Positions 1 through 19,885 of a stretch of DNA of 20,021 nt are shown here, in pieces. A program made the position numbers and the translations under genes. The notes below the pieces were generated by a model. That model made no database searches. It saw only the letters and a program-made list of their open reading frames with translations, and was not told where the DNA came from. This DNA comes from Deinococcales bacterium (GTDB lineage Bacteria > Deinococcota > Deinococci > Deinococcales > JAAFIG01), in the NCBI GenBank assembly GCA_031414595.1, contig JANNVX010000057.1, positions 1 to 20,021 of the forward strand. The letters run 5' to 3'. Positions within the stretch are counted from its first letter, which is position 1. Each line of letters begins with the position of its first letter.

Positions 1-1
1 G

Positions 2-1465
2 AGCTTTGGCAAGTCTCGAGCTAAACAAGTCGAAAAACCAAGCACCACCTTCAAAGAAGTCGCGGGTTGCGATGAAGCCAAAGAAGAATTATCCGAAGTC
101 GTGGATTTCTTAAAAAACCCAACCAAGTACCACGACATCGGCGCAAGAATTCCCAAAGGTGTACTACTAATCGGTCCTCCAGGCAGTGGTAAAACACTGC
201 TGGCTCGAGCCGTGGCAGGTGAGGCTCGAGTCCCCTTCTTTACTATTTCAGGGTCAGACTTCGTAGAAATGTTCGTTGGTGTCGGGGCAGCCAGAGTTAG
301 GGATTTATTCGAGCAAGCCCGTAAAACCGCACCGTGTATTATCTTTATTGATGAAATAGATGCGGTTGGTCGTAAACGTGGTTCTGGTATGGGTGGCGGT
401 AACGATGAACGCGAACAAACCCTCAACCAATTATTAGTCGAAATGGATGGTTTTGAAACCAAACAAGACATTATTATCCTCGCCGCTACCAACCGCCCAG
501 ATGTTCTGGATGCTGCCTTACTTCGCCCTGGTCGCTTTGATCGGCAAGTCACGGTGGATGCCCCAGATGTGAAAGGACGCGAAGAAATCCTGCGGGTTCA
601 CTCGAGAAAAAAACCACTCGATGAAAGTGTTGACTTAAAAACTGTTGCTAAACGAACACCTGGTTTTGTTGGGGCAGACTTGGAGAACCTCCTCAATGAA
701 TCAGCCTTATTAGCGGCTCGAGGAGGCAGACGTAAAATCACGATGCGTGATATTGATGAAGCCGCAGACCGAGTGGTGATGGGAGCAGCCAGAAAATCTC
801 GAGTGATTCTGCTCGAGGATAAGTTGATTACGGCATATCATGAAGTTGGACATGCAATTGCAGCACATTTGCTACCGTTGTCGGATAGGGTACATAAACT
901 CACGATTGTACCGCGTGGTGGAGCGGCTGGCTACATGATGCCATTACCATCAGAAACACTGCATTACTCGAAATCCAGATTGCTCGATGAAATTGCGGTC
1001 TTCTTGGCTGGCAGATGTGCCGAAGAACTGCAATTTGCCGATGTCACGACTGGCGCACAAAATGATTTTCAACGCGCCACCAGCATTGCTAAACGCATGG
1101 TTGCCGAATGGGGAATGAGTCAAACCCTTGGGCATGTGGCACTGATTGAAGAAACCCAAAATTACTTGGGTTATGGTAACGAAAGCCGTTCCTACAGCAA
1201 TGCCACCGCCCAAGCCATAGATGCCGAAGTCAAAAGCATTATCGAGGTGCAGTATGTGCGGGTTAAGCACTTACTCGAGCAGAACCGCAACGCCATGGAC
1301 AGGGTAGTTGGTGTCTTACTCGAGCGTGAAACCCTCAACGGCGAAGAGTTCGCCACCGTTTTTGATGGTGGTTTGCTGCCCGAAGAACCCGAAGCTAAAC
1401 CTAACCTCGAGCCAAGTTTTATGCCCCCAAGTGTGCAACCAAAAACCAAGCCAAGCGGGGCTTAA
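2..1465 (+). CDS. ftsH: ATP-dependent zinc metalloprotease FtsH (5' end outside window)
   Basis: The frame is open from position 2 (SFGKSRAK...[23 protein letters not shown]). It has Walker A GPPGSGKT, Walker B IFIDEID, the [24 protein letters not shown] and the zinc motif HEVGH. Confidence 0.98.
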
Positions 1466-1524
1466 ATTGACTTTAACAATAGTTCGGTAAATTCTCAGAG
1501 AAAATTCAAATTATGCTGTCCTAT

Positions 1525-1551
1525 AGGGCGAACACAGGGGTTCGCCCCTAC
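1525..1551 (-). repeat. GTAG-family REP-like extragenic palindrome
   Basis: The minus strand reads GTAG-GGGCGAAC-CCCTGT-GTTCGCCC-T: a GTAG tetranucleotide followed by an 8-bp GC-rich hairpin, between convergent genes. It may also act as a terminator. Confidence 0.65.
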
Positions 1552-1589
1552 GAACTACAAATACGTCACCAACACGAAAAATTAAAAAA

Positions 1590-4500
1590 CTACCAAACCA
1601 TTGATTTTAAGGCAACGGCAATTAAACTCGAGTTGACTTGCTCGAGTTGTGCTGGACTCAATTTTTTCTCTAAAGTATCACGCAGTAACACCGCATGTTC
1701 GCGTCCAATGCTGCGTTTAACACCGCAATCACCAATCGGACGAGCAAGGCGCACCAAGGTTTCTTTGTATTCCATGCCCAAACCAACTCGGGCGGCTAGT
1801 TCATAGAGCGTCCAGAACCACAAGTAATCTTCTCTAGGGGCTTGGCTGGCGCGTAAGACCGTGGCATATTGGCGCTGCATTAACAAATCTTCGATTTCGG
1901 CAAGGGCATACAACCCATGATGCCAAGCGGGAATCATTTCTAATGGCGGTAAAGACCCAAGTGGTTGACCCAAGAAACGGGCTAAACGCACCCGCCAAAT
2001 CATCATCGCGGGTGCATCAAAACGCTGTGCCAAGGCAAGGGCTTGTTCAAGTTGCCCTAGCATGGTGTGGCACAAAACACTATTTTCGGCCGCAATATTC
2101 TCGAGTTCACGGTCATCGGCGCGTTTTGCCAACACCAAGGCTCGTTTGAAGCGTTCTAAAGCCTCTTCGACATCATCTTCTAAGGTCAGAATCACACCAG
2201 TGTTATTGAGGCTAAAGACTTGGAGTTCTAAATGCCCAACTCGAGCCGCCTCCTCAGAAATTTCGGCATGGACTTCTAAAGCCCTTGACCATTGGCGTTT
2301 ACCACTGTAGGCATTGGCTTCTAAGCGGCGCAGTTGCAGATAACGCAGCAAATCGGTTTCACGGCTGAGGCGGCTTTGGGTGGCTTTGGTTAAAAGTAAG
2401 GTACGGTTATACTGCCCTAACGTTAAAGCAATCTGCCCCAGAAGCAGCAAGGCATCCACCTCGAGTTCAAGGTCATGTCCCTTGAGGTTTGCCCAAGCCA
2501 TTAAGGCATGGTGTCTGGCGGTGGCAATATCGGACATCGCCAGCGCCACCCGAGCGCGAGCCAGCAACACTTCTGCCCCAGAAGCTCGAGATAGCACTTC
2601 TAAAGCCCGTATTGGTTCGCCCCTTGCCGTTAAGAGTTCGGCAAGTCGCAGTCTGGCTTTGGCTTCAAGGTTGCTGTCAGCGTGGTACAAAACTTCGCGG
2701 TAATGGCGTTCGGCTTCGGCAATATGCCCAGTGGCTCGCAAGGCTTCGGCAAGTCCAAGGGTAGCTCGAGCGCGTAACTGACTGCCCTCAGAACTGGTTA
2801 AGTGCGAGGCGGACTCGAGGGCTGCCCTAAAACCACGTTCGGCAAGGGCATAATGCAGGTTTTTTAAGGCACTTTCACCGCCGCGTACTCCCATTTCAAG
2901 GGCTTTTTGATAGTGCTGGGCAATCGCATGATGCTCAGCTAATTCGACATCTGAGGCACGTAAACTAAGGCGTTCGGCGGCTTTGGCATGGAGTTGTTTG
3001 GCGTTGCTACCACTTAAATCCGAACGCAATTTAGCCGCGTATTCAGGATGGGTAAATTTATAGCCGTTGCCTCGAGTCCCCGCAATTTCAAGCAGCACCC
3101 GCGCCCGCATCATGTCTTCAAGCGCACTGATGGCGAGGTCATCATCCCAGCCAAGTAATTTTCGGGCATCTTCATAATCAAAACGAGTTCCAAGCACGGC
3201 GGCAGCTTGGGCAAACAGCAGCGCCGTCCCTGTTAATTGCTCCAAGCGTTTCTCGAGGATTCCAGCAATATTCTCTGGAATTTGGTCGTCAATGCGTGTC
3301 CATTCAAAAATACCATCGCGCTCGAGCAGTTGCCGACGCTCGAGCATGGTGCGTAAACGTTCCTCGAGCAACCACGGATTACCGCCACTGCGTTCAAGTA
3401 AGACATCCCGCAAACGTGCCTCGACGGGCGCACCAAGTCGGGCTTCAATCAAGCGCTCCAAGGCTTCTGGCGGCAAGGCACTTAAAGCAACCGTTTGGTT
3501 ACGGGCAGGTAAATGACGCTCAAACCCGTAGGCTAAATCTTCGGGGCGGTAGGTCAGGATTGTCCGAACCTTATTTGCACCACGTAAACCATGAGCCAAA
3601 TGCCGCAAATCCTCGGCATTGGCAAAATGCAAATCCTCAAAAACAACAATCCCATTGGTGTCCTCGAGTAATTCACGCAGGGCTTCATAACGGGCAAGAC
3701 GCTGTAAATCACTGCTCCAAGCCCCTGATTTTAGACCGTCTCTGGCGGTCTCCGACAAACCCCAAAATGCCTCGGGTTGCTTTTCGGTCAACAACTCTAT
3801 AAAACGCTCAAACCACGCTCCCGGCGCGTCATTCTCGAGCCAATGGACTTGAAGCCATGTGTTTTGAAAATTACCTGCCAGTTCTTGCAGCAAGCGCGAT
3901 TTGCCAATACCCGCCTCGCCAAGCAAAGCCACCACACAATGAATCGGTTCAAGCGCTCGGTACAGGCTTGACAATTCCAAAGCCCGACCAATCATCGGGG
4001 CAGACAGCAGTTGTGGCGGCGGCACAGTCTGTTTGGTTTGTACCCCACGCAAGGTGGCTGCTACTTCGAAAGCACTGATTGGGCGTTCGTTCGGAAATTT
4101 AGCCAGTAAGCTCATGGCTAATTGCTCCAAGTCGCTTGGAATATCGGCTCTGAATTCACGCACCGAACGCGGATTGACCTGTAAATGCGACAACAGCACC
4201 TCGGCAATGCTATTAGATTCAAATGGCACTCGCCCACAAAGGGCTTGGTAGAGCATTACCCCAAGCGCATACAAATCTGAGCGCGGGTCGAGTTCCAAAC
4301 CACGGCATTGCTCTGGCGACATATACAAAACCGTGCCAACCATCGCCCCTTCTCGAGTCAGCAGCACACTGTTGTCATTGGCTTTGGACAAGCCAAAATC
4401 CATCAGTTTGACCTTATTTTGCGTATTCAGCATCACGTTTTCGGGCTTTAAGTCACGGTGCAGCATCCCCACGCCATGCACCACGGTAAGCGCATCGCAA

Positions 4501-4820
4501 AGCTGAGCAAACACATCACGCACTGCTTCTAAACTCGGACGCGACTCAATCCACTCTTGTAAGGTTTGCCCTTCAACATACTCGAGCGTTAGATACGGTG
4601 AACCAGCGTTTTCTCCATAATCCAAGACCTCGATAATATTGGGGTGTTTTAGACTCGAGAGCGCCCGAAATTCGCGTTTCATTCGAGCGCCACCCGCAAA
4701 AGCAATGTTGCTGTGTAATTGTTTTAGGGCAACCAGCCGTTTACTCACGGTGTCAAGCGCCAAAAGCACCCGAGCCGAAGCCCCGACACCCAATTCGCGC
4801 ACCACCGAGTAACGTTCCAT
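1590..4820 (-). CDS. Ser/Thr protein kinase fused to a P-loop NTPase (AAA_16/STAND-like) and TPR-like helical repeats
   Basis: Hanks kinase motifs GVGASARV, VALK, HRDLKPEN, DFG, YMSPEQ and DLYALG. Walker A GEAGIGKS, Walker B VVFEDLH, GGNPWLL, then Ala/Leu-rich TPR-like repeats. ATG at 4820 is preferred over TTG at 4853. Confidence 0.9.
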   Translation of the reverse strand: MERYSVVRELGVGASARVLLALDTVSKRLVALKQLHSNIAFAGGARMKREFRALSSLKHPNIIEVLDYGENAGSPYLTLEYVEGQTLQEWIESRPSLEAVRDVFAQLCDALTVVHGVGMLHRDLKPENVMLNTQNKVKLMDFGLSKANDNSVLLTREGAMVGTVLYMSPEQCRGLELDPRSDLYALGVMLYQALCGRVPFESNSIAEVLLSHLQVNPRSVREFRADIPSDLEQLAMSLLAKFPNERPISAFEVAATLRGVQTKQTVPPPQLLSAPMIGRALELSSLYRALEPIHCVVALLGEAGIGKSRLLQELAGNFQNTWLQVHWLENDAPGAWFERFIELLTEKQPEAFWGLSETARDGLKSGAWSSDLQRLARYEALRELLEDTNGIVVFEDLHFANAEDLRHLAHGLRGANKVRTILTYRPEDLAYGFERHLPARNQTVALSALPPEALERLIEARLGAPVEARLRDVLLERSGGNPWLLEERLRTMLERRQLLERDGIFEWTRIDDQIPENIAGILEKRLEQLTGTALLFAQAAAVLGTRFDYEDARKLLGWDDDLAISALEDMMRARVLLEIAGTRGNGYKFTHPEYAAKLRSDLSGSNAKQLHAKAAERLSLRASDVELAEHHAIAQHYQKALEMGVRGGESALKNLHYALAERGFRAALESASHLTSSEGSQLRARATLGLAEALRATGHIAEAERHYREVLYHADSNLEAKARLRLAELLTARGEPIRALEVLSRASGAEVLLARARVALAMSDIATARHHALMAWANLKGHDLELEVDALLLLGQIALTLGQYNRTLLLTKATQSRLSRETDLLRYLQLRRLEANAYSGKRQWSRALEVHAEISEEAARVGHLELQVFSLNNTGVILTLEDDVEEALERFKRALVLAKRADDRELENIAAENSVLCHTMLGQLEQALALAQRFDAPAMMIWRVRLARFLGQPLGSLPPLEMIPAWHHGLYALAEIEDLLMQRQYATVLRASQAPREDYLWFWTLYELAARVGLGMEYKETLVRLARPIGDCGVKRSIGREHAVLLRDTLEKKLSPAQLEQVNSSLIAVALKSMVW

Positions 4821-4880
4821 ACGGTTGCTATTATGCCTTATTCTCGTGACCAATTGATTGCGCCTAAAGACCTACGGATT

Positions 4881-5576
4881 CTATAACTCGAGAATTACCT
4901 GTGGTACAAAACGCACTGCATCAGCCGCCACATAAGAAAGTGGAATCCCGTCCCAGTGGCGCAACACCCGAGAAGCATCAATGCCATGCAAATGCCCATA
5001 CACCACTGCGTCAGGTTGTAACTCCTCGATAAACTTAGTAAAGCCGCTTGGTTCAAACGCCCCGTTGGTTGGTGGGTAATGTAGCATCAGCACCAGACGG
5101 CTGTAATGCTTGCCGCGTAAAGAAATTTTAGCCAGTTCAAGCCGCTCGAGTTCACGCTTATAAATTTTTTCGTCATCCAAGCTAAAATCGTCCTGCCCCG
5201 GACTTGTCCAACCCCTCGAGCCAAGAATTGCCACATCGCCAACCAGTACCGAATCGTGTTGCAAGGCTTGAATACTTGGTGGTAGGGCTGCCCGTACCTT
5301 AGAAATGCTGCCCCACCAATAATCGTGATTGCCACGAATGATAATTTTATTGCCCGGCAGGGCGGCAATCATTTCTAAGTCTGGTAATGCCTCCTCGAGT
5401 CGCATTCCCCAAGAAATATCACCAGCAATTAGCACCGTGTCATCAGGGCGCACCGTCTCGAGCCACTTTTCAAAAAAGATTTGTGGATGCCCCTGCCAAT
5501 TGCCACCAAAAATACCCATGGATTTACCATGCACCGCCGACAAGTGTGGGTCGGCAATCGCAAGAAGTCGTGGCAT
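4881..5576 (-). CDS. Calcineurin-like metallophosphoesterase (DR1119-like subfamily)
   Basis: Motifs IADPH, AGDISW, RGNHDYWW, LHYPP and YGHLH. Start placed at ATG 5576 because a TAAACT -10 box lies 7 nt upstream. Confidence 0.9.
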   Translation of the reverse strand: MPRLLAIADPHLSAVHGKSMGIFGGNWQGHPQIFFEKWLETVRPDDTVLIAGDISWGMRLEEALPDLEMIAALPGNKIIIRGNHDYWWGSISKVRAALPPSIQALQHDSVLVGDVAILGSRGWTSPGQDDFSLDDEKIYKRELERLELAKISLRGKHYSRLVLMLHYPPTNGAFEPSGFTKFIEELQPDAVVYGHLHGIDASRVLRHWDGIPLSYVAADAVRFVPQVILEL

Positions 5577-5583
5577 AGAGAGC

Positions 5584-5589
5584 AGTTTA
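5584..5589 (-). promoter_or_regulatory. -10 box of a leaderless promoter (metallophosphoesterase)
   Basis: TAAACT-gctctct-ATG on the minus strand, with no Shine-Dalgarno sequence. Confidence 0.6.
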
Positions 5590-5675
5590 ACTTTATCTGA
5601 CCACAAAGTTAGATACCACCCCACTTTAAGACTCGAGAACCTGCCATTAGGGTTGTGTATTAACGCAAAAAACCT

Positions 5676-6284
5676 TTAGAACTGGGCAATCAAAAGCGCA
5701 CAACCAGACTCGAGCCGAACATCTATTTTTCCGTGAGCAATGTTGGAAATCCCTAGGCTTGAACCGAATCCTAAATTGGCATTCTCGAGATTCCACTTGG
5801 CGTTTTGAATGGTTAAACCAGTGCAGTTCTCGAGCGCTAAAATACTAAAAGTCTGGTTATTCTCGAGCGGAATGCAGTGCTGATTTACAACAATCCAAGC
5901 CGCTTCTGAGCCACTCTCGAGACCCACCACAAACCCACTTTTTGTTTCTCGAGCCGCCAAAAGTGCAATCCCAAGCGCATGGTCAAACCGTCCACCAAAC
6001 GCGCCAAGTATGGTGGCACTGGTTGCCCCAAGGCTTTTAGCAGCTATAAGTGCCAACTCGAGGTCGGTGCTGTCTTTTTCTGCTGGGAAAGTCTGACGTG
6101 GTGCATCTAAGATAATCCCATCGCTCGAGTCAAAATCTCCGACCCATTGTGTTACCGTTAAACCCAGCCTAACGGCGTGCCTTGCGCCGCCATCGGCTGC
6201 CACCACAAGGCGAAAAGCCTCCGCCAAAGCCACAACTCGAGGGGTGATACTCAGGTCTCCAGCCGCAAGAATAAGCGCGTGCAT
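5676..6284 (-). CDS. thiN: Thiamine pyrophosphokinase
   Basis: Motifs VAADGGA, VGDFDS, EKDSTDLELA, GAFGGRFDH and SSLGISN. Confidence 0.95.
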   Translation of the reverse strand: MHALILAAGDLSITPRVVALAEAFRLVVAADGGARHAVRLGLTVTQWVGDFDSSDGIILDAPRQTFPAEKDSTDLELALIAAKSLGATSATILGAFGGRFDHALGIALLAARETKSGFVVGLESGSEAAWIVVNQHCIPLENNQTFSILALENCTGLTIQNAKWNLENANLGFGSSLGISNIAHGKIDVRLESGCALLIAQF

Positions 6285-6289
6285 AGGCT

Positions 6290-6769
6290 TTACTTGCGTT
6301 TGAAACTCGGTTTTTCATCCTCGGGTTCTTGACCGTCTAAGTTCTGAATGGCAGAAACAAAATCTTGGACATTATCAAAATCCTTATAGACACTGGCAAA
6401 ACGAATATACGCCACATCGTCTATGCCGCGTAAAAATTTCATGGCACGACGACCAATTTCGACACTCTGAATTTCGGTGTCGCCAAAACCATCTTCTAAA
6501 CTAAAGGCAAAAGCCCGTAAGCGCTCCGCATCCACTGGGCGTTTTTCGCAAGCAATAATTAAGCCCCGCAGCAACTTATCTGGGTCAAAGGTTTCTTTGC
6601 GTCCAGAACGTTTAAGCACCGTCAAAGGTTCAAATTGAGCGCGTTCATAACTGGTGAATCGGTAGCCACAATTCGGGCATTCTCTACGCCGACGAATACT
6701 TGCCCCTTCGTCCGAAGGGCGCGAATCCACAACTCTGGTGTCTAAATGTTGACAACGAGGACACTTCAT
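6290..6769 (-). CDS. nrdR: Transcriptional repressor NrdR
   Basis: MKCPRC...VVDSR...IRRRRECPNCGYRFTSYER zinc ribbon, an ATP-cone domain and DVAYIRFASVY. Confidence 0.98.
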   Translation of the reverse strand: MKCPRCQHLDTRVVDSRPSDEGASIRRRRECPNCGYRFTSYERAQFEPLTVLKRSGRKETFDPDKLLRGLIIACEKRPVDAERLRAFAFSLEDGFGDTEIQSVEIGRRAMKFLRGIDDVAYIRFASVYKDFDNVQDFVSAIQNLDGQEPEDEKPSFKRK

Positions 6770-7482
6770 TCTAAGAACTCCCGAGGAATAAGTTTTTTGC
6801 GTTCAGGCAAGGGTGCAAGTTTAACTCCAATGGTCTGACCCGTAATGCCCCTTGCCGCAGGTAAAGCCAAACTTAAAGCACTTTCGCCAAGTCGCGCATC
6901 AAAATCTACACCACCAGAAATCCTTGAAGGAACAAGCGCATTGGTACGCACCCCCATGTCGGATAAGCCACCGACAATCCCCGAAAGATACGCCCGTAAA
7001 CCCCTTGTATGCGGCTCGTTATTATCCGAAGGCGGCAAGACCAGCGTTGCCCACGCAAGCGGCGCTCGGCGCATCAGGGCTTGCATCACCAAGTAACTCG
7101 AGCGGGCTTGAACTTCAAACATCTCGTTGAATTCGGATTCGGTCAGTTTCTTAAATGGCGTAACACTGACCCCATCGGCAATATGCACCAACCCAGAAAT
7201 ACTGCCGTAAATCTCGAGAATTTTATCAAAAACTTTTTTAACCTCGAGCTGCACCGCCGTATCGCCTTTGACGGGAATGGTTTCAATACCAAGCCGCTCG
7301 AGTTCGGCAGCTGTTTGCGAAGCCGCTTCAGGATTGGGGTCAATCACCACCACTGTCGCCCCAGCCAAACCCAAAGCCCGAGCGATGCTATGCCCAAAGC
7401 CTCTGCCAGCCCCACTGACGGCAATGACAGTGTCCGCTAAGGGCTTGGCGGAAATCGGACTTTGAAGACTGGTCTGGGTCAC
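6766..7482 (-). CDS. SDR-family (Rossmann fold) protein with atypical catalytic motif
   Basis: VSGAGRGFG nucleotide-binding motif and C-terminal ITGQTI. No YxxxK. GTG start at 7482 inferred from TATGAT 6 nt upstream. The stop overlaps the nrdR start (ATGA). Confidence 0.8.
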   Translation of the reverse strand: MTQTSLQSPISAKPLADTVIAVSGAGRGFGHSIARALGLAGATVVVIDPNPEAASQTAAELERLGIETIPVKGDTAVQLEVKKVFDKILEIYGSISGLVHIADGVSVTPFKKLTESEFNEMFEVQARSSYLVMQALMRRAPLAWATLVLPPSDNNEPHTRGLRAYLSGIVGGLSDMGVRTNALVPSRISGGVDFDARLGESALSLALPAARGITGQTIGVKLAPLPERKKLIPREFLE

Positions 7483-7488
7483 AAGTGC

Positions 7489-7540
7489 ATCATACTCATT
7501 TATCGGGGTGCTTGCCAAACTCGAGTAACCATGCTACACT
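7489..7540. promoter_or_regulatory. Overlapping divergent sigma70-type promoters (tRNA-Ala on +, SDR-nrdR-thiN on -)
   Basis: Plus strand: TTGCCA (7512-17), 17 bp, then TACACT (7535-40) with an extended TG. Minus strand: TTGGCA (7518-13), 18 bp, TATGAT (7494-89), 6 nt, GTG. Confidence 0.7.
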
Positions 7541-7571
7541 CCCAAAGCTCGAGGTTAGGGCAATCCCAAGA

Positions 7572-7647
<76 letters not shown>

Positions 7648-7651
7648 GAAT

Positions 7652-7680: not shown

Positions 7681-7692
7681 TTGGGCTTAAAT

Positions 7693-8402
7693 TACGTTTG
7701 GTCTCGAGCTAAGAGCGTGTTTATAAACGGAATACGAATCCGCAAAACCAAGTGCGGCGCAGCCAAGAATGAAACCGAAGCAAAGAAAGCCCTTACCTTG
7801 GCTCGAGCCGACAAGGAACGCGGGACACTGGCAACACCTGATCGAGTGACAGTAGCCGAATGGTTAGCCCAATGGCTGGAAGGTAAAAAGGCAACAATCA
7901 CAGACAGCAGTAAAGCCCGATACGCTGGCATCATCAAAAACCATTTGATACCCAAACTTGGTGATAAAAGATTCCAAGCCCTAAAACCGCTTGACCTTCG
8001 CAACTTTTACAACGACCTTATAGAGATAGGCTTAACCCCCAAGAGGATTCGCAGCATTGTTCTCTGCCTTAAAACAAGTGGTGTCCCTCGAGTTGACGAT
8101 GCGAAACATTGCTGATGTTGTCCGTCCTGAATTGCCAAGGCAAGACAACAATGCTAAAGCAGCTAAGGCATGGACAGCTACCAAAGCCAAAACATTTTTA
8201 ACCGTTGCTCGAGGTCATTATCTGTATCCCATGTTTACTTGATGCTTGCTGATATAGTTGGGGGTATGTCCCACATGTATGCCGTCATTATCTGTATCCC
8301 ATGTTTTACTTGATGCTTGGGTTACGCCGTGGTGAGGTTTGCGGGTTGTGATGGTCAAGTATTGACCTTGAGAGAAAAACCCTCACAGTACAGGATAACA
8401 AA
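7693..8402 (+). pseudogene. Degraded tyrosine integrase (phage/ICE type)
   Basis: N-terminal and SAM-like segment (TVAEWLAQWLE...YAGIIKNHLIPKLG) and a frameshift near 8056 into LFSALKQVVSLELTMRNIADVVRP...AWT. A second frameshift and duplication follow, then box I GLRRGEVCGL*WSSIDLE with an in-frame TGA at 8349-51. The HxxR and catalytic Tyr region is absent. Confidence 0.9.
8214..8319 (+). repeat. 35/36-bp direct repeat inside the integrase relic
   Basis: GTCATTATCTGTATCCCATGTTT(T)ACTTGATGCTTG at 8214-8248 and 8284-8319, separated by 35 bp. Confidence 0.95.
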
Positions 8403-8420
8403 CCCTGTACTGTGAGGGTT
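8378..8420. repeat. Perfect 17-bp inverted repeat, possible terminator for tRNA-Arg
   Basis: AACCCTCACAGTACAGG (8378-94), 9-nt loop, CCTGTACTGTGAGGGTT (8404-20). On the minus strand it begins 6 nt after the tRNA CCA and ends in TTTTT. Confidence 0.85.
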
Positions 8421-8426
8421 AGCATT

Positions 8427-8503
8427 TGGCGCACCCAGAGAGGCTCGAACTCCCGACCCGCGAGTTAGAAGCTCGCTGCTCTATCCGGCTGAGCTATGGG
8501 TGC
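8427..8503 (-). tRNA. tRNA-Arg (anticodon UCU)
   Basis: Reverse complement GCACCCATAGCTCAGCCGGATAGAGCAGCGAG-CTTCTAA-CTCGCGGGTCGGGAGTTCGAGCCTCTCTGGGTGCG-CCA, 77 nt. Confidence 0.97.
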
Positions 8504-8517
8504 ATCAGCGCCCAAGG

Positions 8518-8546
8518 ATTCTAAAGCCAAGGCTCGAGATGTGCAA
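8518..8546 (-). promoter_or_regulatory. sigma70-type promoter of tRNA-Arg
   Basis: Minus strand TTGCAC, 17 bp, TAGAAT, ending 14 nt before the mature tRNA 5' end. Confidence 0.75.
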
Positions 8547-8550
8547 GTGC

Positions 8551-8581
8551 AAAAAAACTTTGGAGGCGTACCTCCAAAGTT
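8551..8581 (-). terminator. Rho-independent terminator after the carboxypeptidase gene
   Basis: Minus strand AACTTTGGAGG-tacg-CCTCCAAAG-TTTTTTT. Confidence 0.85.
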
Positions 8582-8596
8582 CTGTGGCTTGGTTTT

Positions 8597-10276
8597 TTAG
8601 GGTACAGTCAAAAATACGGCACTGACAGGACCCCAGTTGTTGCTCGAGTCGCGTCCACGTACAAAAATCGTATGTTTGCCCGAACTCAGTCCTGCGGTGC
8701 TGATATTGGCGCTGGCATTTTCGCTCGAGGTGTTAAAACTGCCGTCTGTGGCGCTCATGGCATTGGCGACTGCACCACTTGCCCAAGGTGGGGTATCAAT
8801 ATAGTATTCGGCGGCGGCTACGCTTTGGGTTGGTTCTGTGCCGTTGGTATTGCTAAAGCGTGTGTCGTTTAGGCTGACGGTTAAGGCGCTGCCTGCAAGT
8901 GTGAGATTTAAGGCATCTGGTCCGGCTGGCAATTGATAAGGCGCTCGAGCCACACGAATAGCGTACAACAAAGCATTTAAGTTATTTGGCAAGATGGTGT
9001 TGGTAAAATCAGAGCATGGTTGAAAGAACGACGTGCCAAGTTCAAAGGTGTATGAAGCAATGCCAAGTGCGCCGTAAACATAATCATCGGATGTGCCACT
9101 GGTGGGGTATAAACCAACCGATTGTTGCGGGGTATAGTTATTAAAGTAAGCAAATTTGCGCCCAAGGGTTTGTAAAGCTGTTCCGTTTGGGGCGGCACTG
9201 CTGCGGCTTCCCCAAGGCCAGAGTACCAGTTGGCTGTAGCTATGCAGCGTAATGAAGATGCCACTGGTGCTGGCTGGCGCGGCATCGGTGGTGTTTGGTC
9301 CGCGTTGGTCTGGGAAAAGGCTCGAGGCATAGTTTTGAATGCCTTGGGTTTCTGGCTCAGAAGCGGCACTTGGTCCTCGGTAGGTTTCGTTGCATTGGTT
9401 GCTGCTCGAGCCGCCAGTATTCCATTCAAAGCTGCTGTTGCGGTTCAGGTCTGCGCCTTTGGTGCTGCTGCGGCAATAATTGGTATTGTTGTTTTTGCGC
9501 CATAAAACCCCAGCCTCGGCTTTTTTACGTCCATCAGGGTTGGCTTGTAATAAGAAATGGACTTCGTGATGGTCAAGCATCCAAGTCACATCTGGATTTG
9601 TCCCGTAATTGCTGGTCAGGTACTCAGCGAGACGGGTGGCGAGTTCGGCGGTGGTGTACTCTCGAGCATGAATCGCACTCATGATAAAGGCTTTGGGTTT
9701 TGTGCCAGCAATGTTTTTATTGGTCAGTTTTAGAACCCGAAGGTCATATCCACCAGTATTTCGGGTTTTCTGCCAGCTATCGCCAACATCAGACCAAGTG
9801 GCGAGGTTCGGATAAGTATCAACGATATTCTGAGCGCCAGTAAAGGTTTCTTCAACGGTGCGGTAACAAGTGTAACCACTGATGGTTTGGGTTTTAATAC
9901 TTGCAAGTCCTTGTGTGTCTATTTTGCGAATCAAGTTACTTTGTTGAGTGGTGAGGGCGGTGTCTACACTGACTTCGATTTTTAGACTCGGCTCGAGGTC
10001 GCGTAATTTAGCAAAGTCTTCTAGGTTAAGGTCGGTCAATAAGTAACCTTTGGCGTAATTCATTTCGATAGGTTCAAAGCTAATTGCAATTTTTCGGGCA
10101 GTGATGTCATCACTAAATTTGACGCGGCTGATCACCAATTCGTTTTGTTCAAAAGCGTATTTTTCTGCTTGGCTGAGGTTGCCAAGTTCGCTTTGGGTGC
10201 TGGCTTTTTGACAGCCGACCAAAGCCAACGCCGCAAAAATAGCAAGGACGGGTGTTGAATTACGCCAATGATTCAT
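8597..10276 (-). CDS. M14 zinc carboxypeptidase (carboxypeptidase T-like) lipoprotein with C-terminal Ig-like domain
   Basis: HARE zinc motif, NPDG, WRKN, DLNRN, LHSYS and FELG. Lipobox LVGC. A GGAGG RBS lies 5 nt before ATG 10276. Confidence 0.92.
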   Translation of the reverse strand: MNHWRNSTPVLAIFAALALVGCQKASTQSELGNLSQAEKYAFEQNELVISRVKFSDDITARKIAISFEPIEMNYAKGYLLTDLNLEDFAKLRDLEPSLKIEVSVDTALTTQQSNLIRKIDTQGLASIKTQTISGYTCYRTVEETFTGAQNIVDTYPNLATWSDVGDSWQKTRNTGGYDLRVLKLTNKNIAGTKPKAFIMSAIHAREYTTAELATRLAEYLTSNYGTNPDVTWMLDHHEVHFLLQANPDGRKKAEAGVLWRKNNNTNYCRSSTKGADLNRNSSFEWNTGGSSSNQCNETYRGPSAASEPETQGIQNYASSLFPDQRGPNTTDAAPASTSGIFITLHSYSQLVLWPWGSRSSAAPNGTALQTLGRKFAYFNNYTPQQSVGLYPTSGTSDDYVYGALGIASYTFELGTSFFQPCSDFTNTILPNNLNALLYAIRVARAPYQLPAGPDALNLTLAGSALTVSLNDTRFSNTNGTEPTQSVAAAEYYIDTPPWASGAVANAMSATDGSFNTSSENASANISTAGLSSGKHTIFVRGRDSSNNWGPVSAVFLTVP

Positions 10277-10299
10277 GATGACCTCCACAGTAAAACCCT

Positions 10300-10358
10300 A
10301 GAACTGAATATCATCTTAAACCAAAGCTGAACCAGAATGTAAGATGGTATTCAGTTCT
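10300..10358. promoter_or_regulatory. 19-bp inverted repeat upstream of the carboxypeptidase gene
   Basis: AGAACTGAATATCATCTTA (10300-18) and TAAGATGGTATTCAGTTCT (10340-58) match at 18 of 19 positions with a 21-bp spacer. Confidence 0.6.
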
Positions 10359-10423
10359 GTACTACAAAATCAAGTTTTTACCCTGAGAAAAGTCGGACTT
10401 GAAGGTTCAATTTATGTTGCCAA

Positions 10424-13297
10424 TCACTTACCAAAGAATAGCCCACCGTAGCCCGGAACACTGACAATCCCCGAGAATTGCAAACCAGGCGCAGCTGTCG
10501 GGCTGCTGGCATCAGCTAAATCGGCGGCGCTGTATTTGTAAATGTTGCCAAGGGCTGTGCCAAAGTTACCACAATTGGCATTGGCAGCACTTGCACCTTG
10601 GATATTGACCCATAGTTCGCCATTTGGCGCAGTTGCGATTCCACCGGGGCAGTGCATAAATGAACTGCCGTTAGAATTATTTTTGGAAATAAAACTCAGT
10701 TGTTGCACTTGATTATTGACAGGTGTGGCATTGATGTCGGTCAGCTTAAAGCCCATTAGGTTATCGCCACTGTTATTGGCGACCCATAGTTTTCCTGCCG
10801 CAATACTGATACCTTCTGGTAGTCTAAAATTATTACCGTTGGGCTGAAAAGTCAGGCGCAAGGTTGCATCATTAATTCGGTTAGGGTCTAAGTCATAGAC
10901 CCGCACTTTTCCGTTGGTGCTGCCATTAAAGTCCACATATTCAACAGCGTACAAACGATTAGCTGCCAAATGAACTCCAGACACAGCCACGTTCAGATTT
11001 AGGATTGGTAAAACCTGATTGGCATAGCTATTTGTGCCTGCGTTATATTTTAGATAGCGCAGACCACTTTGTGTACCGACAAAAAAACTGCGTCCGTCGG
11101 TATCAAGGGTTAAACCAATAAATTCGTTGATACCCGAAAACAGCGTTTCGCACTGACCAGCCGTGACGTTGACCACGCCATTTTGCGACACAACGGCTGC
11201 CGCAATTCTTATCACTTTTTGTACTCCAGGAGCAGAGAAAATAATATTTCCTGCGTTGTCTTGAATCAAATCATTCGGCAGAACATTACCGCAAGCAACT
11301 AAATTTAGGGTGGTGTCGGGTGCAATACCTGCATTTGCGCCACCCCATTTAGCTTGGCTGTAGCCACGAATGATGTTTTCGCGTAGCGAAGCGTGCCAGA
11401 GCTTAGGTAATGCGTTAGTGGCAACATTTACAGTCACCAGACTCGAGTCAACCGAACCGTTGGCGTTGGTGGCGGTTAAAATAAAACTGGTGGTGGCAGC
11501 TACAGTGCGGCTGGTACTCGAGCCAGTCACCACACCAACCCCTTGGTTAATGCTCAGGCTGGTTGCCCCTGTCACGTTCCAGCTTAGGGTAACGTTACCA
11601 CCGCCAACAGGCAGGTTTTCTTTATTGACCGCAAAAGAATTGATGCTTGGTTTTGGGGCGGGAGCAGCCCCACCATTGGCAAACGCCACGCCACCATAAC
11701 CAATGTTACTTTCGGTTGCGCCGCCAATACTGACACTTGGGGTGGTGGCGGCTGGGGTTTGGGCGAGTTGTGCGGCTGTATAGGCAATGGCTGCACCATC
11801 CCCTTGGTTATTTGCCCAGATTGTTCCAGTGCTGTTATCCTTGGCTAGACCGTAAATTTTGTTGGTTGCCCCTGAGCCAATAAACCGAGTTGCGCTTGGG
11901 TTAGGTGTGGTTAGTTGTGCGGCTGTAAAAACACTGATTCCAGAGGGCGCACCTTCTTGACCAACGTATAAATTTCCACTCGAGTCAAATTCTAAGCCAA
12001 CTGGTTTGACTAAATTCTGACTCAATACATAACTGGCTGCCGAATTATTTTGTTGTTCGGGTGGTGTAAAGCGCAAAACATTGTTACCCATAAAATTTGC
12101 CACCCAAAGGTTACCGCTCGAGTCTATGGCTAAGCCAGCTGGGAAACTTAAACCTTGGGTAATTTTACGGTCTGGGGTTTTTACACCCGAAGAGGTCAGA
12201 GCGCTGGCTGGAAAACGCACCAGACTATTGCTGTTGCTGACCCAAAGATTGCCGCTCGAGTCAAAGTTTAAGCCCAGTGGCGAACTCAGGCTATTTTGTG
12301 CATCGGTGTCTATAACTACGCTTGGGGTTGGATTACCCGTTTGATTAAATTGATTGGGCGTATAACCAAGCAATTGATTGCCAGTATTGTTGGTTGCCCA
12401 TAAGTTTCCACTTGGGTCAAACGCCAAATCGTTGGGTTTTGCATTCGCGGGTAACGTAATCGTGACGATTGGACTTGGTGAGCCGCTTACTGCCAATTGC
12501 CCTTTTCTATAGCCTTTAATCAGACCAGCATTGTAATTTGCCGCAAAAAGCACAGGCTTTGCGGTGACTTGTAAGGTTGTTTTTGCATTGACGGTGGCAC
12601 TATAAAAGGCGCTTAATTCGGTTGTGCCTTGATTGATTCCAGTCACTAAACCAGTTGTGGCATTGACCGTAGCAACGTTTGTATTCAATACCGACCATGT
12701 GACCGAAGGGGTCACTTGCTCGCCCTTACTGTTTTTGGCGCTCATGGTTGCTTGCACAGCAGCTTCTTCTGGGACATTGGCAATGTTAATCGAAATTGAG
12801 GTCGGTGTGAATAGCACCACAAGATATTTACAAACATAACAAAAGTATTCTTTAGAGATTTCAGTTACCCACTTAGAGGAAACGCGCTTGGTTGGATACA
12901 TTAGGTACTCAGTGTCGGCGGGTCGTCTTGCCAGCGTGACCAACAATGACCCTGCTGGTATAGCTTGCAGTGTAAATCGCCCACCCGAAGCACTGGTCAA
13001 CCCACTGTCTTCGATTTCTAAAGTCACATCTTGATTAGCGACAAATTCGTTTGGGGCGGTGATTTGAAAACTGCCACCGCCCAATGGCGTGTACTCGAGT
13101 GGCAGAGGTGGTGCAACAATCGGCTCGAGTTTAATATTGACTGGGGCTGTAAATGTATTGGCTGGAATGGTCAAGGCAGCCGAATTATTGGGAGTTGTTA
13201 CCACACCGCCAGTCACACCGATTCCAGGAGGGGTTGGTGGGGTACAAGCACTGATGAGTAAGCCAAGAACAACCAAGCCCAAAAATAATTTTTTCAT
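10424..13297 (-). CDS. Large surface lipoprotein with Ig-like (Big_2-like) domains and two NHL-like beta-propeller regions
   Basis: Lipobox ISAC and AGGAG RBS. VTWSVLNTNVATVNATTGLVTG is Big_2-like. Repeated P-x-GL-x-FDSSGNLWV blades, an Ig-like TLSWNVTGATSLSI segment and a second, more divergent propeller. Confidence 0.8.
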   Translation of the reverse strand: MKKLFLGLVVLGLLISACTPPTPPGIGVTGGVVTTPNNSAALTIPANTFTAPVNIKLEPIVAPPLPLEYTPLGGGSFQITAPNEFVANQDVTLEIEDSGLTSASGGRFTLQAIPAGSLLVTLARRPADTEYLMYPTKRVSSKWVTEISKEYFCYVCKYLVVLFTPTSISINIANVPEEAAVQATMSAKNSKGEQVTPSVTWSVLNTNVATVNATTGLVTGINQGTTELSAFYSATVNAKTTLQVTAKPVLFAANYNAGLIKGYRKGQLAVSGSPSPIVTITLPANAKPNDLAFDPSGNLWATNNTGNQLLGYTPNQFNQTGNPTPSVVIDTDAQNSLSSPLGLNFDSSGNLWVSNSNSLVRFPASALTSSGVKTPDRKITQGLSFPAGLAIDSSGNLWVANFMGNNVLRFTPPEQQNNSAASYVLSQNLVKPVGLEFDSSGNLYVGQEGAPSGISVFTAAQLTTPNPSATRFIGSGATNKIYGLAKDNSTGTIWANNQGDGAAIAYTAAQLAQTPAATTPSVSIGGATESNIGYGGVAFANGGAAPAPKPSINSFAVNKENLPVGGGNVTLSWNVTGATSLSINQGVGVVTGSSTSRTVAATTSFILTATNANGSVDSSLVTVNVATNALPKLWHASLRENIIRGYSQAKWGGANAGIAPDTTLNLVACGNVLPNDLIQDNAGNIIFSAPGVQKVIRIAAAVVSQNGVVNVTAGQCETLFSGINEFIGLTLDTDGRSFFVGTQSGLRYLKYNAGTNSYANQVLPILNLNVAVSGVHLAANRLYAVEYVDFNGSTNGKVRVYDLDPNRINDATLRLTFQPNGNNFRLPEGISIAAGKLWVANNSGDNLMGFKLTDINATPVNNQVQQLSFISKNNSNGSSFMHCPGGIATAPNGELWVNIQGASAANANCGNFGTALGNIYKYSAADLADASSPTAAPGLQFSGIVSVPGYGGLFFGK

Positions 13298-13432
13298 TGT
13301 TTCTCCTCATGAACTCGAGCAGTCTACAAGGCAGCCCGTTACCTCTGCGTTACCAGAATCACTATAAACAACATTTATGTTTTCAGAACAACTTGAATAA
13401 TTACTTTACCCGAACATCCAGTTCTCAGCCCA

Positions 13433-13462
13433 ATTGACAAGTCAATGAAACCCTTGTACCTT
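13433..13462 (+). promoter_or_regulatory. sigma70-type promoter with a palindrome over the -35 box
   Basis: TTGACA (13434-39), 17 bp, TACCTT (13457-62). ATTGAC-aa-GTCAAT dyad at 13433-46. Confidence 0.65.
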
Positions 13463-13468
13463 AAATCC

Positions 13469-13537
13469 ATGCAAACCTATCCCATCAGACTCGAGTGGTG
13501 CTGCGCTGCCAGCATCAAACGTTCTAAGTCTGGCTAG
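13469..13537 (+). CDS. Candidate leaderless 22-aa upstream ORF MQTYPIRLEWCCAASIKRSKSG
   Basis: The ATG lies exactly 6 nt after the -10 box, the same geometry as other leaderless genes here. It ends 95 nt before the dehydrogenase gene. Confidence 0.4.
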   Translation: MQTYPIRLEWCCAASIKRSKSG

Positions 13538-13632
13538 GTGATCACCACATTTTAGCGAATCTGTAAACGGTTCATAAAAAATAAATCTAGCTTCTTTAGC
13601 GATAGAGAAGAATTTGAGGATTAGGGTGTTTT

Positions 13633-14847: not shown

Positions 14848-15434
14848 TTCTGACACTGTGTGGCTCGAGACACCCGCAAGGCTGCCCAATCAAAACGCGG
14901 GGTTTCGGCTTCGTTTGCCACATTGGGCTGGCTTGGCACAGGCAGATGCAATGCCGCAAGTCGGACACACCAGAGCAGCAAGCCTTGTTTGACCAACACA
15001 TTTTTCTCGAGTGGTAAAGCTATTGTTTGTGGCTCGAGCGTAATCAAAGCACTTTTTTCGGCAATTTTTAAGGCAAAACGCCAATTGCCCAGCAGTAGCG
15101 AATTCGGGCTGGTACTCGAGCCAATGATTAAAAAAGCTCTTTGATTGCGTGAAAACTCGAGCCGCGTTTCAGCCCCATCTGGGCGTAAACGAAAAGCTGT
15201 GGTTAGGGTTGTGCCAGCCAGTTTTTGTGATTCAAGCCAGGCTGGATAACCCAAGATACTGACCACGCCCGAACTCGTCTCGAGCAGTAATTTTTGCGAC
15301 TCGAGACGGGTTTTGGTAATCGTGCTTTTAGGGCGGTCTTCGGTGATTCCTTGGACAGCAATGCTTTGTCCTACTATTTGGCGTTGCGCCAAGACCAAAC
15401 TCGAGAGGAGCAACACAAAAAGTAGGTGTTTCAT
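14844..15434 (-). CDS. Secreted hypothetical protein
   Basis: Signal-peptide-like MKHLLFVLLLSSLVLA. Its start overlaps the stop of the upstream protease gene (ATGA). Confidence 0.75.
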   Translation of the reverse strand: MKHLLFVLLLSSLVLAQRQIVGQSIAVQGITEDRPKSTITKTRLESQKLLLETSSGVVSILGYPAWLESQKLAGTTLTTAFRLRPDGAETRLEFSRNQRAFLIIGSSTSPNSLLLGNWRFALKIAEKSALITLEPQTIALPLEKNVLVKQGLLLWCVRLAALHLPVPSQPNVANEAETPRFDWAALRVSRATQCQN

Positions 15435-17236: not shown

Positions 17237-17321
17237 AGGTACTAGCCTAGCACCAAAACGATTTTTTTGATGATAAGTTTTTCAAAAGGAAAGTGTTGTT
17301 TATTTTTTTCCTTCCTCCCAG

Positions 17322-19220: not shown

Positions 19221-19317
19221 GCTTTAAGTATAGGGCATGTTTTTGTTTTACGCGCCAAGTGCCTCAATTATTTGGGGGTAACTCAAGGTTTTGGTAAAAA
19301 TACGAGGTTTAGAGCAT

Positions 19318-19346
19318 TTGGCAAAACTCAAGGCAAGCGCTACAAT
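19318..19346 (+). promoter_or_regulatory. sigma70-type leaderless promoter of the toxin-antitoxin operon
   Basis: TTGGCA (19318-23), 17 bp, TACAAT (19341-46), 6 nt, ATG 19353. Confidence 0.7.
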
Positions 19347-19352
19347 GCACCC

Positions 19353-19655
19353 ATGACTGCACCAGCAAAAATGCAAACTCTAAACACAGGAATTGACCCA
19401 CAATTCTTAATTGATACTACTGGTAAACCAACCGCAGTCATGCTCTCCATCGAAACATGGGAGCGAATCGCGCCAATGCTGCAAACAAACCTTGCACTCG
19501 AGACACAAACCGTTCTAAAGCACATTCCAGTGGTGGATGAACCTGTACCTGCTCGAGTCAGCAAACGATTCAAAGAACTAGTAAAAGGTATCAAAGTCGA
19601 AACGTTGACCGTAAAAGAAGCGCAAACCGAACTTAAAAGGTTGCGCGACAAATGA
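19353..19655 (+). CDS. Putative type II antitoxin
   Basis: 100 aa. QFLIDTTGKPTAVMLSIETWERI resembles Phd/YefM-like N-termini. It overlaps the RelE-like gene by ATGA. Confidence 0.65.
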   Translation: MTAPAKMQTLNTGIDPQFLIDTTGKPTAVMLSIETWERIAPMLQTNLALETQTVLKHIPVVDEPVPARVSKRFKELVKGIKVETLTVKEAQTELKRLRDK

Positions 19656-19885
19656 TTACACCCGAACGAACACCCTTTGTGCTTGTGCTGGAAAAACGCG
19701 CTCTAAAAGCCCTAAAACCGCTCAGCACCCAAGACGAAGCACGGGTTTGGGACGCACTTCTACGCCTTTGCGCCGAGGGCATTGGCGATATTGGACAGTT
19801 GCAGAACGAACCAACTGGTTCTTTGCGTTTAAGAGTTGGGGATATGCGAATATTTCTTTTTCTCGAGGGACATAGCCTAACATTA
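19652..19885 (+). pseudogene. RelE/ParE-family toxin interrupted by an IS
   Basis: Not in the ORF track. Reads MITPERTPFVLVLEKRALKALKPL...GDIGQLQNEPTGSLRLRVGDMRIFLFLEGHSLT, then runs into IS sequence. RLRVGDMRI matches the RelE RLRVGDYRV motif. Confidence 0.8.

Follow-up and report, generated by a model that had tools for sequence, protein, structure and literature searches.

Genome-wide, HIP1-like iteration of the palindrome CTCGAG in an uncultured family of Deinococcales

Why does one six-base palindrome recur every couple of hundred bases along a stretch of bacterial DNA that otherwise carries ordinary genes? The stretch, referred to here as the window, is the whole 20,021-nucleotide contig JANNVX010000057.1 of a Deinococcales assembly (GCA_031414595.1), and is contig C57 of the genome that we call G000 (4.49 Mb in 120 contigs, 47.2% GC, 94% complete). 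The word is CTCGAG, which a preliminary description, made from the sequence of the window alone, had likened to the highly iterated palindrome HIP1 of cyanobacteria. An exact count gives 103 copies, in agreement with that description, with a mean spacing of about 195 bp, the first copy at position 15 and the last at 19862-19867. The mean of 100 dinucleotide-preserving shuffles of the window was 2.38 copies and the maximum 8, while hand arithmetic from base composition gives about 4.6, close to the previously quoted expectation of about 5; across both nulls the excess is 22- to 43-fold. The strong excess reported earlier is thus real, but the 20-fold quoted for it is better given as 20- to 55-fold, depending on the null. 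Sites occur in all three frames of the window genes, as had been noted (48 in frame 0, encoding Leu-Glu, 23 in frame 1 and 24 in frame 2), and eight lie outside open reading frames (ORFs) of at least 90 aa, at 15, 5632, 7520, 7548, 8208, 8533, 13314 and 13490. The five positions formerly named as intergenic (5632, 7520, 7548, 8533 and 13314) are all among these; position 15 was counted as non-ORF, yet sits inside the 5'-open FtsH frame. According to Pfam the genes are ordinary ones (FtsH, a Ser/Thr kinase, NrdR, thiamin pyrophosphokinase, an M14 carboxypeptidase, others, and a truncated integrase), and their ORFs are intact, as claimed before, so that the sites do not mark chimeric junctions that break genes.

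The enrichment is not confined to the window. Genome G000 contains 23,235 CTCGAG sites (5.18 per kb), which makes this the most frequent hexamer by 3-fold; the next hexamers are those that overlap CTCGAG (about 7,000 each), followed by AAAAAA (5,616). All 837 5-kb segments of the genome hold at least 6 sites (mean 25.9), the poorest being low-GC islands on contigs C14 and C46 with 6-9 sites per 5 kb. The flanking bases are near random, with a mild shortage of C at -1 and of G at +1 (17% each), implying that the repeated unit is the bare hexamer. On the basis of 4,004 simple ORF calls, the density is 5.16 per kb in coding DNA and 5.32 per kb outside ORFs, and the coding sites are distributed over frames 0, 1 and 2 as 12,194, 4,044 and 4,352, with frames 1 and 2 contributing 41%. 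Shuffling of synonymous codons preserves each protein and the codon usage of each gene (itself inflated by CTCGAG) and, as it keeps the whole protein, is stricter than a dipeptide-preserving shuffle; it gave 1,948-2,093 sites in five runs, compared to 20,643 observed in the coding sequences (CDS), a roughly 10-fold excess. Shuffling of codon order gave 887-978 sites in three runs. In intergenic DNA the observed/expected ratio (O/E) is 29 relative to base composition and 55 relative to a motif-masked first-order Markov model. The dipeptide Leu-Glu is the most over-represented one in G000 (O/E 2.24, versus 0.98 for Glu-Leu) and is spelled CTCGAG in 12,214 of 20,402 cases, although only 16% of Leu codons are CTC and 33% of Glu codons are GAG. 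The reverse word GAGCTC, which consists of these two codons as well, has six copies in the entire genome. These data show that the force acts on the DNA word, and not on protein or codon, and that the exact hexamer is maintained at a density of about 5 per kb whatever the DNA, be it housekeeping genes, any of the three frames, spacers or CRISPR repeats; the earlier argument that codon or amino-acid bias would be insufficient is borne out by the margin over the synonymous shuffle, the spread over all frames and the equal density in intergenic DNA.

The same property characterizes a whole family. All 18 other genomes of the family, from five genera, have 4.3-6.8 CTCGAG per kb (values that rest on rounded genome sizes), and the density in samples remains at 4-6 per kb, little changed, over a GC range of 45-60%. 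Within an order-wide sample of 151 genomes, the 132 outside the family span 0.01-3.4 per kb and none is higher. At the lower end, the sister family f3 (36 genomes) has 0.01-0.27 per kb, which represents avoidance. The ratio of the CDS count to the genome's own synonymous shuffle is 1.8-1.9 in the outgroup genomes G019 and G025, 5.1 in G013 and 10.2 in G006, the latter two belonging to the family. In the sister genome G128, Leu-Glu is spelled CTCGAG in 69% of cases, versus 24% predicted from codon frequencies, the Leu-Glu O/E is 1.53, and frames 1 and 2 are about 5-fold over shuffle; ORF calls are crude in high-GC DNA, making the frame and non-ORF figures for the sisters only suggestive, and one sample (G147) comprises 20 kb. 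A weaker bias that goes beyond codon usage is thus present in sister genomes, and the trait seems to form a gradient within the order, of which this family is the extreme. The remark in the preliminary description that CTCGAG is frequent in other Deinococcota holds in a weaker form, for sister families (0.3-3.4 per kb).

Comparison of related genomes shows that individual sites are retained. When DNA of relatives was aligned to G000 by blastn (mean identity 92% for G005 and 75% for G006), the G000 sites that had remained CTCGAG numbered 402 of 448 in G005, 149 of 167 in G001, 139 of 183 in G004 and 629 of 994 in G006, versus 68%, 54%, 43% and 21%, respectively, of background hexamers identical in the same alignments. 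Loss-rate ratios are mostly 0.1-0.5 in all frames and spacers and 0.09-0.68 overall, the extremes coming from intergenic classes of 30 and 8 sites. A cleaner comparison keeps the codon constant: between G000 and G005, CTC codons have a changed third position in 12 of 249 cases when they are part of a site and in 47 of 198 when they are not, and GAG codons in 9 of 251 versus 45 of 241. For the same codon, inside/outside ratios across the four relatives are 0.12-0.33, with synonymous change about 5-fold rarer inside sites.

The origin of the sites can be read from outgroup comparisons. The FtsH gene has 3-10 sites per family genome versus 0-4 in 11 outgroup genomes, and four site columns are common to 6-8 of the ten family genomes (one of these rows, G010, is probably a paralogue, at 54% identity) and to none of the 11 outgroups, even where these encode the same amino acids (for example Ala-Arg-Val). 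Against outgroup G019, Leu-Glu encoded by CTCGAG in G000 is also Leu-Glu in only 39 of 194 cases (20%), versus 30% identity for other dipeptides, while within the family, against G006, it is kept in 571 of 754 cases, versus 58% for other dipeptides. In place of CTCGAG-encoded Leu-Glu the outgroups usually have Val-Glu, Leu-Asp, Ile-Glu or Leu-Ala, and only rarely a gap (six in G025, and none among the top 15 counterparts in the other three). As substitutions are common in these comparisons and gaps rare, the sites were made mainly by point substitution, which often altered the protein, sometimes to Leu-Glu, and were subsequently retained. The HIP1-like label of the preliminary description is therefore appropriate: the word is genome-wide, present in all frames and in intergenic DNA, lineage-wide, conserved in position, and spread mainly by substitution.

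The strength of the force can be estimated from its effect on loss. In a mutation-selection-drift balance (the Li-Bulmer model), enrichment equals e^S, and the relative fixation of changes that destroy a site equals S/(e^S - 1). The inside/outside ratios of 0.12-0.33 correspond to S of about 1.9-3.4 and predict a 7- to 30-fold enrichment, compared to the observed 10- to 55-fold, depending on the null; a relative fixation of about 0.2 corresponds to S of about 2.7 and predicts an enrichment of about 15-fold. Since a single range of S roughly fits both enrichment and retention, a weak and roughly uniform force per site would be sufficient. We infer that a weak per-site advantage or transmission bias, with S of about 1.9-3.4 in drift units, accounts for both the enrichment and the slowed loss, and that CTCGAG is held in a mutation-selection or mutation-conversion balance similar to that of codon bias.

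As to the nature of this force, we tentatively favour the possibility that CTCGAG, as a genuine DNA-level highly iterated palindrome of the whole uncultured family, is a mark that is read in DNA uptake or recombination. With low certainty, the exact palindrome could be read by a dimeric sequence-specific factor, most likely acting on incoming or recombining DNA. Kin DNA, being rich in CTCGAG, would then be preferentially taken up or integrated, and the word would spread by drive, as is now proposed for HIP1 too. Since sister families show the bias as well, in weaker form, such a reader may be older than the family, its effect having been intensified here.

Several observations bear on this proposal. 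Competence genes are widespread, with ComEC and DprA each in 30 of 31 genomes and ComEA in all 31; an uptake role survives this check and gains no specific support from it. Genome G000 has three CRISPR arrays (C11:14960-16121, C82:70753-71697 and C101:44-1413) with two types of repeat of 34-35 nt, both of which contain CTCGAG; the C82/C101 repeat was found in none of the 18 family relatives, and no arrays were found in the relatives' DNA examined. The 49 normal spacers (1,814 nt) contain four CTCGAG sites versus 0.38 expected (Poisson P = 7e-4), or 2.2 per kb, whereas the density of the host would give 8.1 sites. This enrichment indicates that DNA met by the host is also enriched in CTCGAG, which could result from a process inside the cell, from mimicry, or from the acquisition of spacers from kin.

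Adjacent segments of single contigs of G005, G001 and G004 map to different contigs of G000, at identities of 72-97%. Such mosaic identity and broken synteny suggest heavy rearrangement and frequent recombination, or else chimeric bins. The length of the main ComEA copy is about 180-200 aa for family members, compared to 130-250 aa for the sisters. Matches to the ComEA-like HHH_3 domain number 3-8 in G009, G010, G011, G013 and G015 (genera g3-g5), many of them in frames of 110-160 aa, but one per genome in the genus of G000 (two in G003) and one or two in sister families. ComEA architecture was accordingly dropped as a lead to a receptor, since the extra paralogues are limited to g3-g5 and are not family-wide. 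A search of IMG/VR for phages with three sites within 72 bp was likewise set aside, as the dense matches among those listed reflect a codon effect in other phages. The contigs L233/L234, L222, L261 and L254 have 17-39 CTCGAG together with 15-29 GAGCTC per 3.5-4.2 kb and a high GC content, which looks like extreme use of CTC and GAG codons and not like enrichment of one word.

A number of points weigh against an uptake or recombination mark. No reader protein was found, and the uptake sequences known from other bacteria are 9-12 nt long and asymmetric, unlike a palindrome of 6 bp. Uptake genes occur throughout the order and do not account for the extreme density of this one family. The CRISPR spacers sample phages and plasmids, which do not depend on uptake, so that their enrichment is explained no less well by an intracellular process, unless kin DNA is the source of the spacers. 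A selected signal that carries a cost would not be expected to be equally dense in coding and non-coding DNA, and retention in itself cannot separate selection from biased repair or conversion. Polarised counts gave seven strict gains, 11 ambiguous cases and 30 losses, unlike the balance of gains and losses expected at equilibrium; the test is small (5-17 kb of three-genome coverage) and biased against gains, because non-site words diverge faster. The force per site is also not strictly uniform, as the probability that Leu-Glu is spelled CTCGAG is 0.50-0.58 at 17-60 bp from the nearest site versus 0.66-0.69 further away. Finally, a methyltransferase of an unrecognised family would be compatible with the survey described below, in which 18 of the 19 family genomes are incomplete bins.

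Among the other explanations, a neutral drive is the most probable, though doubtful. Sequence-specific mismatch repair or gene conversion would resolve near-cognate words towards CTCGAG, acting on replication errors and on recombination heteroduplex, and the word would merely appear conserved, without having a function. As such a process would act on any resident DNA, it fits the equal density in coding, non-coding, housekeeping and CRISPR-repeat DNA as well as the enrichment in spacers, and one bias parameter fits enrichment and retention as well as selection does. Of the 21 ancestral one-mismatch words that changed, five became CTCGAG, versus about 1 in 18 if change were undirected, although these numbers are very small. 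In Escherichia coli, very-short-patch (VSP) repair depletes the transition variants of its word. In G000 the transition neighbours TTCGAG, CTTGAG, CTCAAG and CTCGAA have O/E values of 1.06-1.26, so that the depletion of one-mismatch variants which biased repair predicts, and which the preliminary description had listed as a test, does not show. Nor was Vsr (PF03852) found in G000, the only genome searched for it and 94% complete, and no C5 methyltransferase was found in G010 or is common to the genera. For HIP1, positional conservation has been put forward as an argument for selection over biased repair (PMC5861425), an argument that a repair bias protecting existing sites would escape.

The uptake or recombination mark can also be put in a more specific form, which is speculative and which we hold to be somewhat improbable: the word could be an independently evolved watermark of kin DNA, read by a conserved dimeric protein in the uptake or recombination pathway of the order, with no dedicated methyltransferase, which would favour DNA rich in the exact hexamer; in this family the drive would have rewritten about one dipeptide per 110 codons and would also have marked the family's phages and plasmids.

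It is unlikely that CTCGAG is maintained in the manner proposed for HIP1, i.e. through an orphan methyltransferase acting on CTCGAG or on its TCGA core, with the methylated word serving repair, replication or transformation. Cyanobacterial highly iterated palindromes do accompany orphan methyltransferases according to Elhai (2015, PMC4390886), and methylated CTCGAG is reported from other phyla (10.64898/2026.06.24.734251). In G000 there are 24 methyltransferase ORFs (23 of these were compared to Pfam, plus one Dam-like gene), most of which have near-genomic CTCGAG density, implying that these genes are not recent imports, and two of them carry a TaqI-like specificity domain. However, the latter two enzymes are found in only three and two of 18 family genomes, and any TaqI_C domain in five of 18. 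We scanned representatives of the five genera (G006, G012, G013, G010 and G011) for the known methyltransferase families. PF01555 was not found in the single-contig genome G013, nor PF00145 in G010, and no G000 enzyme of PF01555, PF00145, PF02384 or PF07669 has an orthologue of >50% identity in all five genera; the best cross-genus enzyme is a type I HsdM (58% identity in G010 and 39% in G013). MT-A70 occurs in one of the five representatives. The D12/Dam-like class is present in 17 of 18 family genomes, but its members share 26-28% identity between genera. In total, no enzyme of PF01555, PF00145, PF02384, PF07669, PF02086 or PF05063 was found to be orthologous across the five genera. The earlier suggestion of an orphan methylase with biased repair thus finds no support, with no methyltransferase of these six superfamilies common to the genera, no Vsr in G000 and undepleted transition variants, and it appears that no conserved dedicated methyltransferase is involved, unlike the situation for HIP1.

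The Dam-like enzyme was rejected as a modifier of CTCGAG, as it is not orthologous across genera and seems to belong to a restriction pair directed at GATC. Downstream of the D12/Dam-like gene, both G000 and G005 have a MutH/Sau3AI-like ORF; at G000:C1:26904-28483 the two overlap by 16 nt, the second ORF encodes 207 aa, and the pair is kept (95-98%) in G005 only. The pair is probably a variable GATC restriction-modification system, the O/E of GATC being 0.14 in G000, 0.48 in G006 and 1.5 in G013. Other palindromes are also purged from G000, such as GGCC (152 copies, O/E 0.01), TGCGCA (2 copies), GGCGCC (3), CGATCG (3), CGCGCG (3), GACGTC (3), GTGCAC (6), GTCGAC (26) and TTCGAA (29), and GGCC is absent from the CRISPR spacers as well. 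GAGCTC, GTCGAC, GGCGCC and GACGTC are nearly absent in samples of G006 and G013 too, while avoidance of GATC and GGCC varies between genera.

A cognate nuclease was also sought. The XhoI-family nuclease (PF04555) was found in none of the 19 family genomes by a search that does find it in the sister-family genome G021, other nuclease families with CTCGAG specificity being outside the search. In G021 an XhoI-family endonuclease (312 aa) is convergent with a PF01555 methyltransferase (340 aa; G021:C1:73699-77256), and this genome still carries 3,937 CTCGAG sites; no close homologue of this methyltransferase was found in G000, which is a further point against modification of the word. In the CTCGAG-avoiding family f3 (genera g7 and g33) there are 37-1,193 CTCGAG per genome, GAGCTC is avoided too, and three small loci have about 70% GC; no XhoI-family nuclease was found in the three f3 genomes searched.

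Quite unlikely, in our estimation, is a role as binding site of an abundant nucleoid-associated or chromosome-organising protein, for which many dispersed sites would be selected. A dimeric DNA-binding protein would be well served by an exact palindrome of 6 bp, the number (about 23,000) and near-Poisson distribution of the sites are reminiscent of how an abundant nucleoid protein covers the chromosome, and a nucleoid role has been proposed for HIP1 (PMC5861425). Gaps between sites in G000 have a coefficient of variation of 0.99 and a flat hazard of about 0.006 per bp from 80 to 300 bp, with depletion of gaps <30 bp and an excess of gaps >1.5 kb (42 versus 9 expected). How often Leu-Glu is written as CTCGAG varies with the distance to the nearest other site, the probability being 0.14 at 9 bp, 0.23 at 12 bp, 0.38 at 15 bp, about 0.5 at 17-30 bp, 0.575 at 31-60 bp and 0.66-0.69 at 61-300 bp, with an exception at 7 bp (0.51), whereas in a control with distance to a non-CTCGAG Leu-Glu it is nearly flat (0.58-0.70). 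A second site is thus disfavoured at 8-16 bp, with recovery at 17 bp, which could be a footprint. Avoidance of hairpins explains this short range equally well: two CTCGAG copies can fold into a stem of 6 bp (-7 to -8.5 kcal/mol) if the loop between them has 3-10 nt, but not if it has 1 nt, matching the low probabilities at 9-16 bp and the value of 0.51 at 7 bp. For this reason we regard the short-range interference as no more than a hint of a protein footprint; either a footprint or saturation could underlie the abrupt return at 17 bp and the slight effect that extends to 60-90 bp. No 10-11 bp phasing is visible in the site spacings of G000, no candidate protein emerged, and enrichment in invader DNA is not predicted by a nucleoid role. 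Intergenic pairs at 21-30 bp are enriched genome-wide (166 versus 110 expected) and possibly represent terminator stems.

Very improbable is a by-product of codon or amino-acid usage, or a relic of a high-GC ancestor that preferred CTC and GAG: 59% of coding sites in G000 are in the Leu-Glu frame, and in high-GC sisters with 1-3.4 sites per kb frame 0 predominates (441 of 515 sites in G025, 320 of 404 in G128), but as a sufficient cause this is refuted by the synonymous shuffle, the other two frames and the intergenic O/E given above, to which may be added the family's density above all 132 other genomes of the order, the identical outgroup FtsH residues that are not spelled CTCGAG, and the scarcity of GAGCTC. 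An assembly, binning or library artefact can be dismissed, as the ORFs are intact with ordinary Pfam content, 18 other genomes (one of them a single contig) are equally dense, the sites align position by position between genomes, and the contig sets of four public freshwater-sediment metagenome runs, possibly from the source sample, hold 99% of the window's sampled words.

CTCGAG is the closest analogue of HIP1 outside the cyanobacteria, although denser, bending the proteins, and apparently not tied to a conserved methyltransferase. HIP1 (GCGATCGC) is likewise a short, lineage-wide palindrome that is over-represented tens-fold or more in coding and non-coding DNA (PMC5861425, PMC4390886, PMC6604393), and its conservation, selection and periodicity (at 10-90 kb) have been described by Xu et al. 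(2018, PMC5861425). Published accounts of HIP1 and our data agree in positional conservation between relatives and in the presence of the word in CRISPR repeats. HIP1 is reported to be scarcer in foreign DNA, to which the low-GC islands of G000, with their fewer CTCGAG sites, would be a parallel if they are of foreign origin. The two differ in that HIP1 is an octamer of another phylum, with 300-2,700 copies per Mb as tabulated by Elhai (PMC4390886) versus 4,300-6,800 per Mb for the hexamer CTCGAG, in that CTCGAG reshapes the proteome (Leu-Glu O/E 2.2), and in that HIP1 has DmtA and DmtC, whereas no conserved cognate orphan methyltransferase was found for CTCGAG. Coupling of HIP1 to orphan methyltransferases is described in the same paper (PMC4390886), together with alternative cyanobacterial palindromes and their densities, and a methylation-dependent boost of transformation has been presented along with an uptake-sequence hypothesis (PMC13756078). 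The alternatives (GGCGCC, GCsGC, GGGATCCC and rCCGGy) are lineage-specific palindromes in the role of HIP1, at about 1,000-2,000 per Mb; they have 75-100% GC and are each linked to a methyltransferase (PMC4390886), while CTCGAG has 67% GC, is 3-5 times denser and has no linked enzyme. One of them, GGCGCC, is among the words purged from G000.

Other systems show partial likeness. The DNA uptake sequences (DUS) of Neisseriaceae and uptake signal sequences (USS) of Pasteurellaceae are family-level words at about 1 per kb, in genes and spacers, that arise by point substitution and probably spread by uptake bias together with recombination. CTCGAG resembles them in being a family-level word in genes and spacers made by point substitution, in organisms with competence genes; it differs in being an exact 6-bp palindrome that is 5 times denser, whereas DUS and USS lack symmetry, measure 9-12 nt, occur in graded variants and have a receptor that is known or suspected. 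The VSP repair of E. coli shifts the frequencies of CCWGG and CTWGG, to a small extent. It illustrates that a repair bias tied to a recognition word can alter word frequencies genome-wide, but the excess of CTCGAG is 20- to 55-fold, its T-containing variants are undepleted, and the search of G000 gave no Vsr. XhoI and PaeR7I recognise the very same word, and a sister genome has the nuclease and methyltransferase pair described above; restriction targets are normally avoided, as CTCGAG is in f3, and the nuclease family was not found in the 19 genomes studied here. Our literature search returned no paper on CTCGAG as a highly iterated palindrome or as over-represented in genomes of this group, and HIP1 and Deinococcota were linked only by passing mentions in what it returned.

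HIP1 has been unexplained for thirty years, in part because it was known from a single phylum and was always confounded with its two methyltransferases. A second and denser word in an unrelated lineage allows comparative tests, in which features common to both words are the prime suspects. As CTCGAG is decoupled from base composition (GC 45-60% within the family) and apparently from any conserved methyltransferase, methylation may be inessential. The bending of proteins towards Leu-Glu matters for codon models, gene finding and detection of horizontal transfer in these genomes, and the word can serve as a compositional marker of native versus foreign DNA, possibly also for assigning phages and plasmids to hosts in metagenomes. 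Should the kin-watermark form of our proposal be true, highly iterated palindromes would represent a general, convergent means of recognising self or kin DNA, and this family would be the cleanest system for finding the reader.

The features of the window are collected in Table 1.

Table 1. Location of CTCGAG sites and associated features in the window
Feature	Position	Strand	Basis or remarks
Dispersed CTCGAG set, 103 sites	15..19867	none	Exact count and ORF calls
ftsH, 3' part (AAA and Peptidase_M41), 10 sites	2..1465	+	Pfam and family alignment
CTCGAG in spacer between phosphoesterase and thiamin pyrophosphokinase genes	5632..5637	none	ORF calls
Two CTCGAG 28 bp apart in spacer between SDR gene and integrase fragment	7520..7553	none	
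Truncated phage-integrase ORF plus ORF-free stretch	7681..8596	+	Sites at 7703, 7802, 8087, 8208 and 8533
Two CTCGAG in spacer upstream of saccharopine-dehydrogenase-like gene	13314..13495	none	
Longest site-free stretch of the window, 1,444 bp	9998..11441	none	

The integrase ORF (7681-8115, 144 aa) contains only the N-terminal SAM-like domain of phage integrases. The pseudogene with sites that had been described earlier corresponds to this truncated ORF, while its extension over 8116-8596, which holds the sites at 8208 and 8533 and may be an integrase remnant, is conjectural. The longest site-free stretch covers the 5' end of the carboxypeptidase gene (8597-10288), a spacer, and the 3' part of the adjacent gene for an NHL/beta-propeller protein with an Ig-like domain (10424-13297). 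This latter gene is poor in sites (7 in 2.9 kb) and has a lower GC content; it is about 79% identical to its counterparts in G001 and G004, compared to 88-94% for the neighbouring genes, and is either fast-evolving or exchanged by recombination. Finally, both ends of the window (1-133 and 19881-20000) recur unchanged at the ends of further contigs of G000 (C98 and C100; C9, C58, C60 and C79), indicating that the contig is bounded by repeated sequence that broke the assembly.

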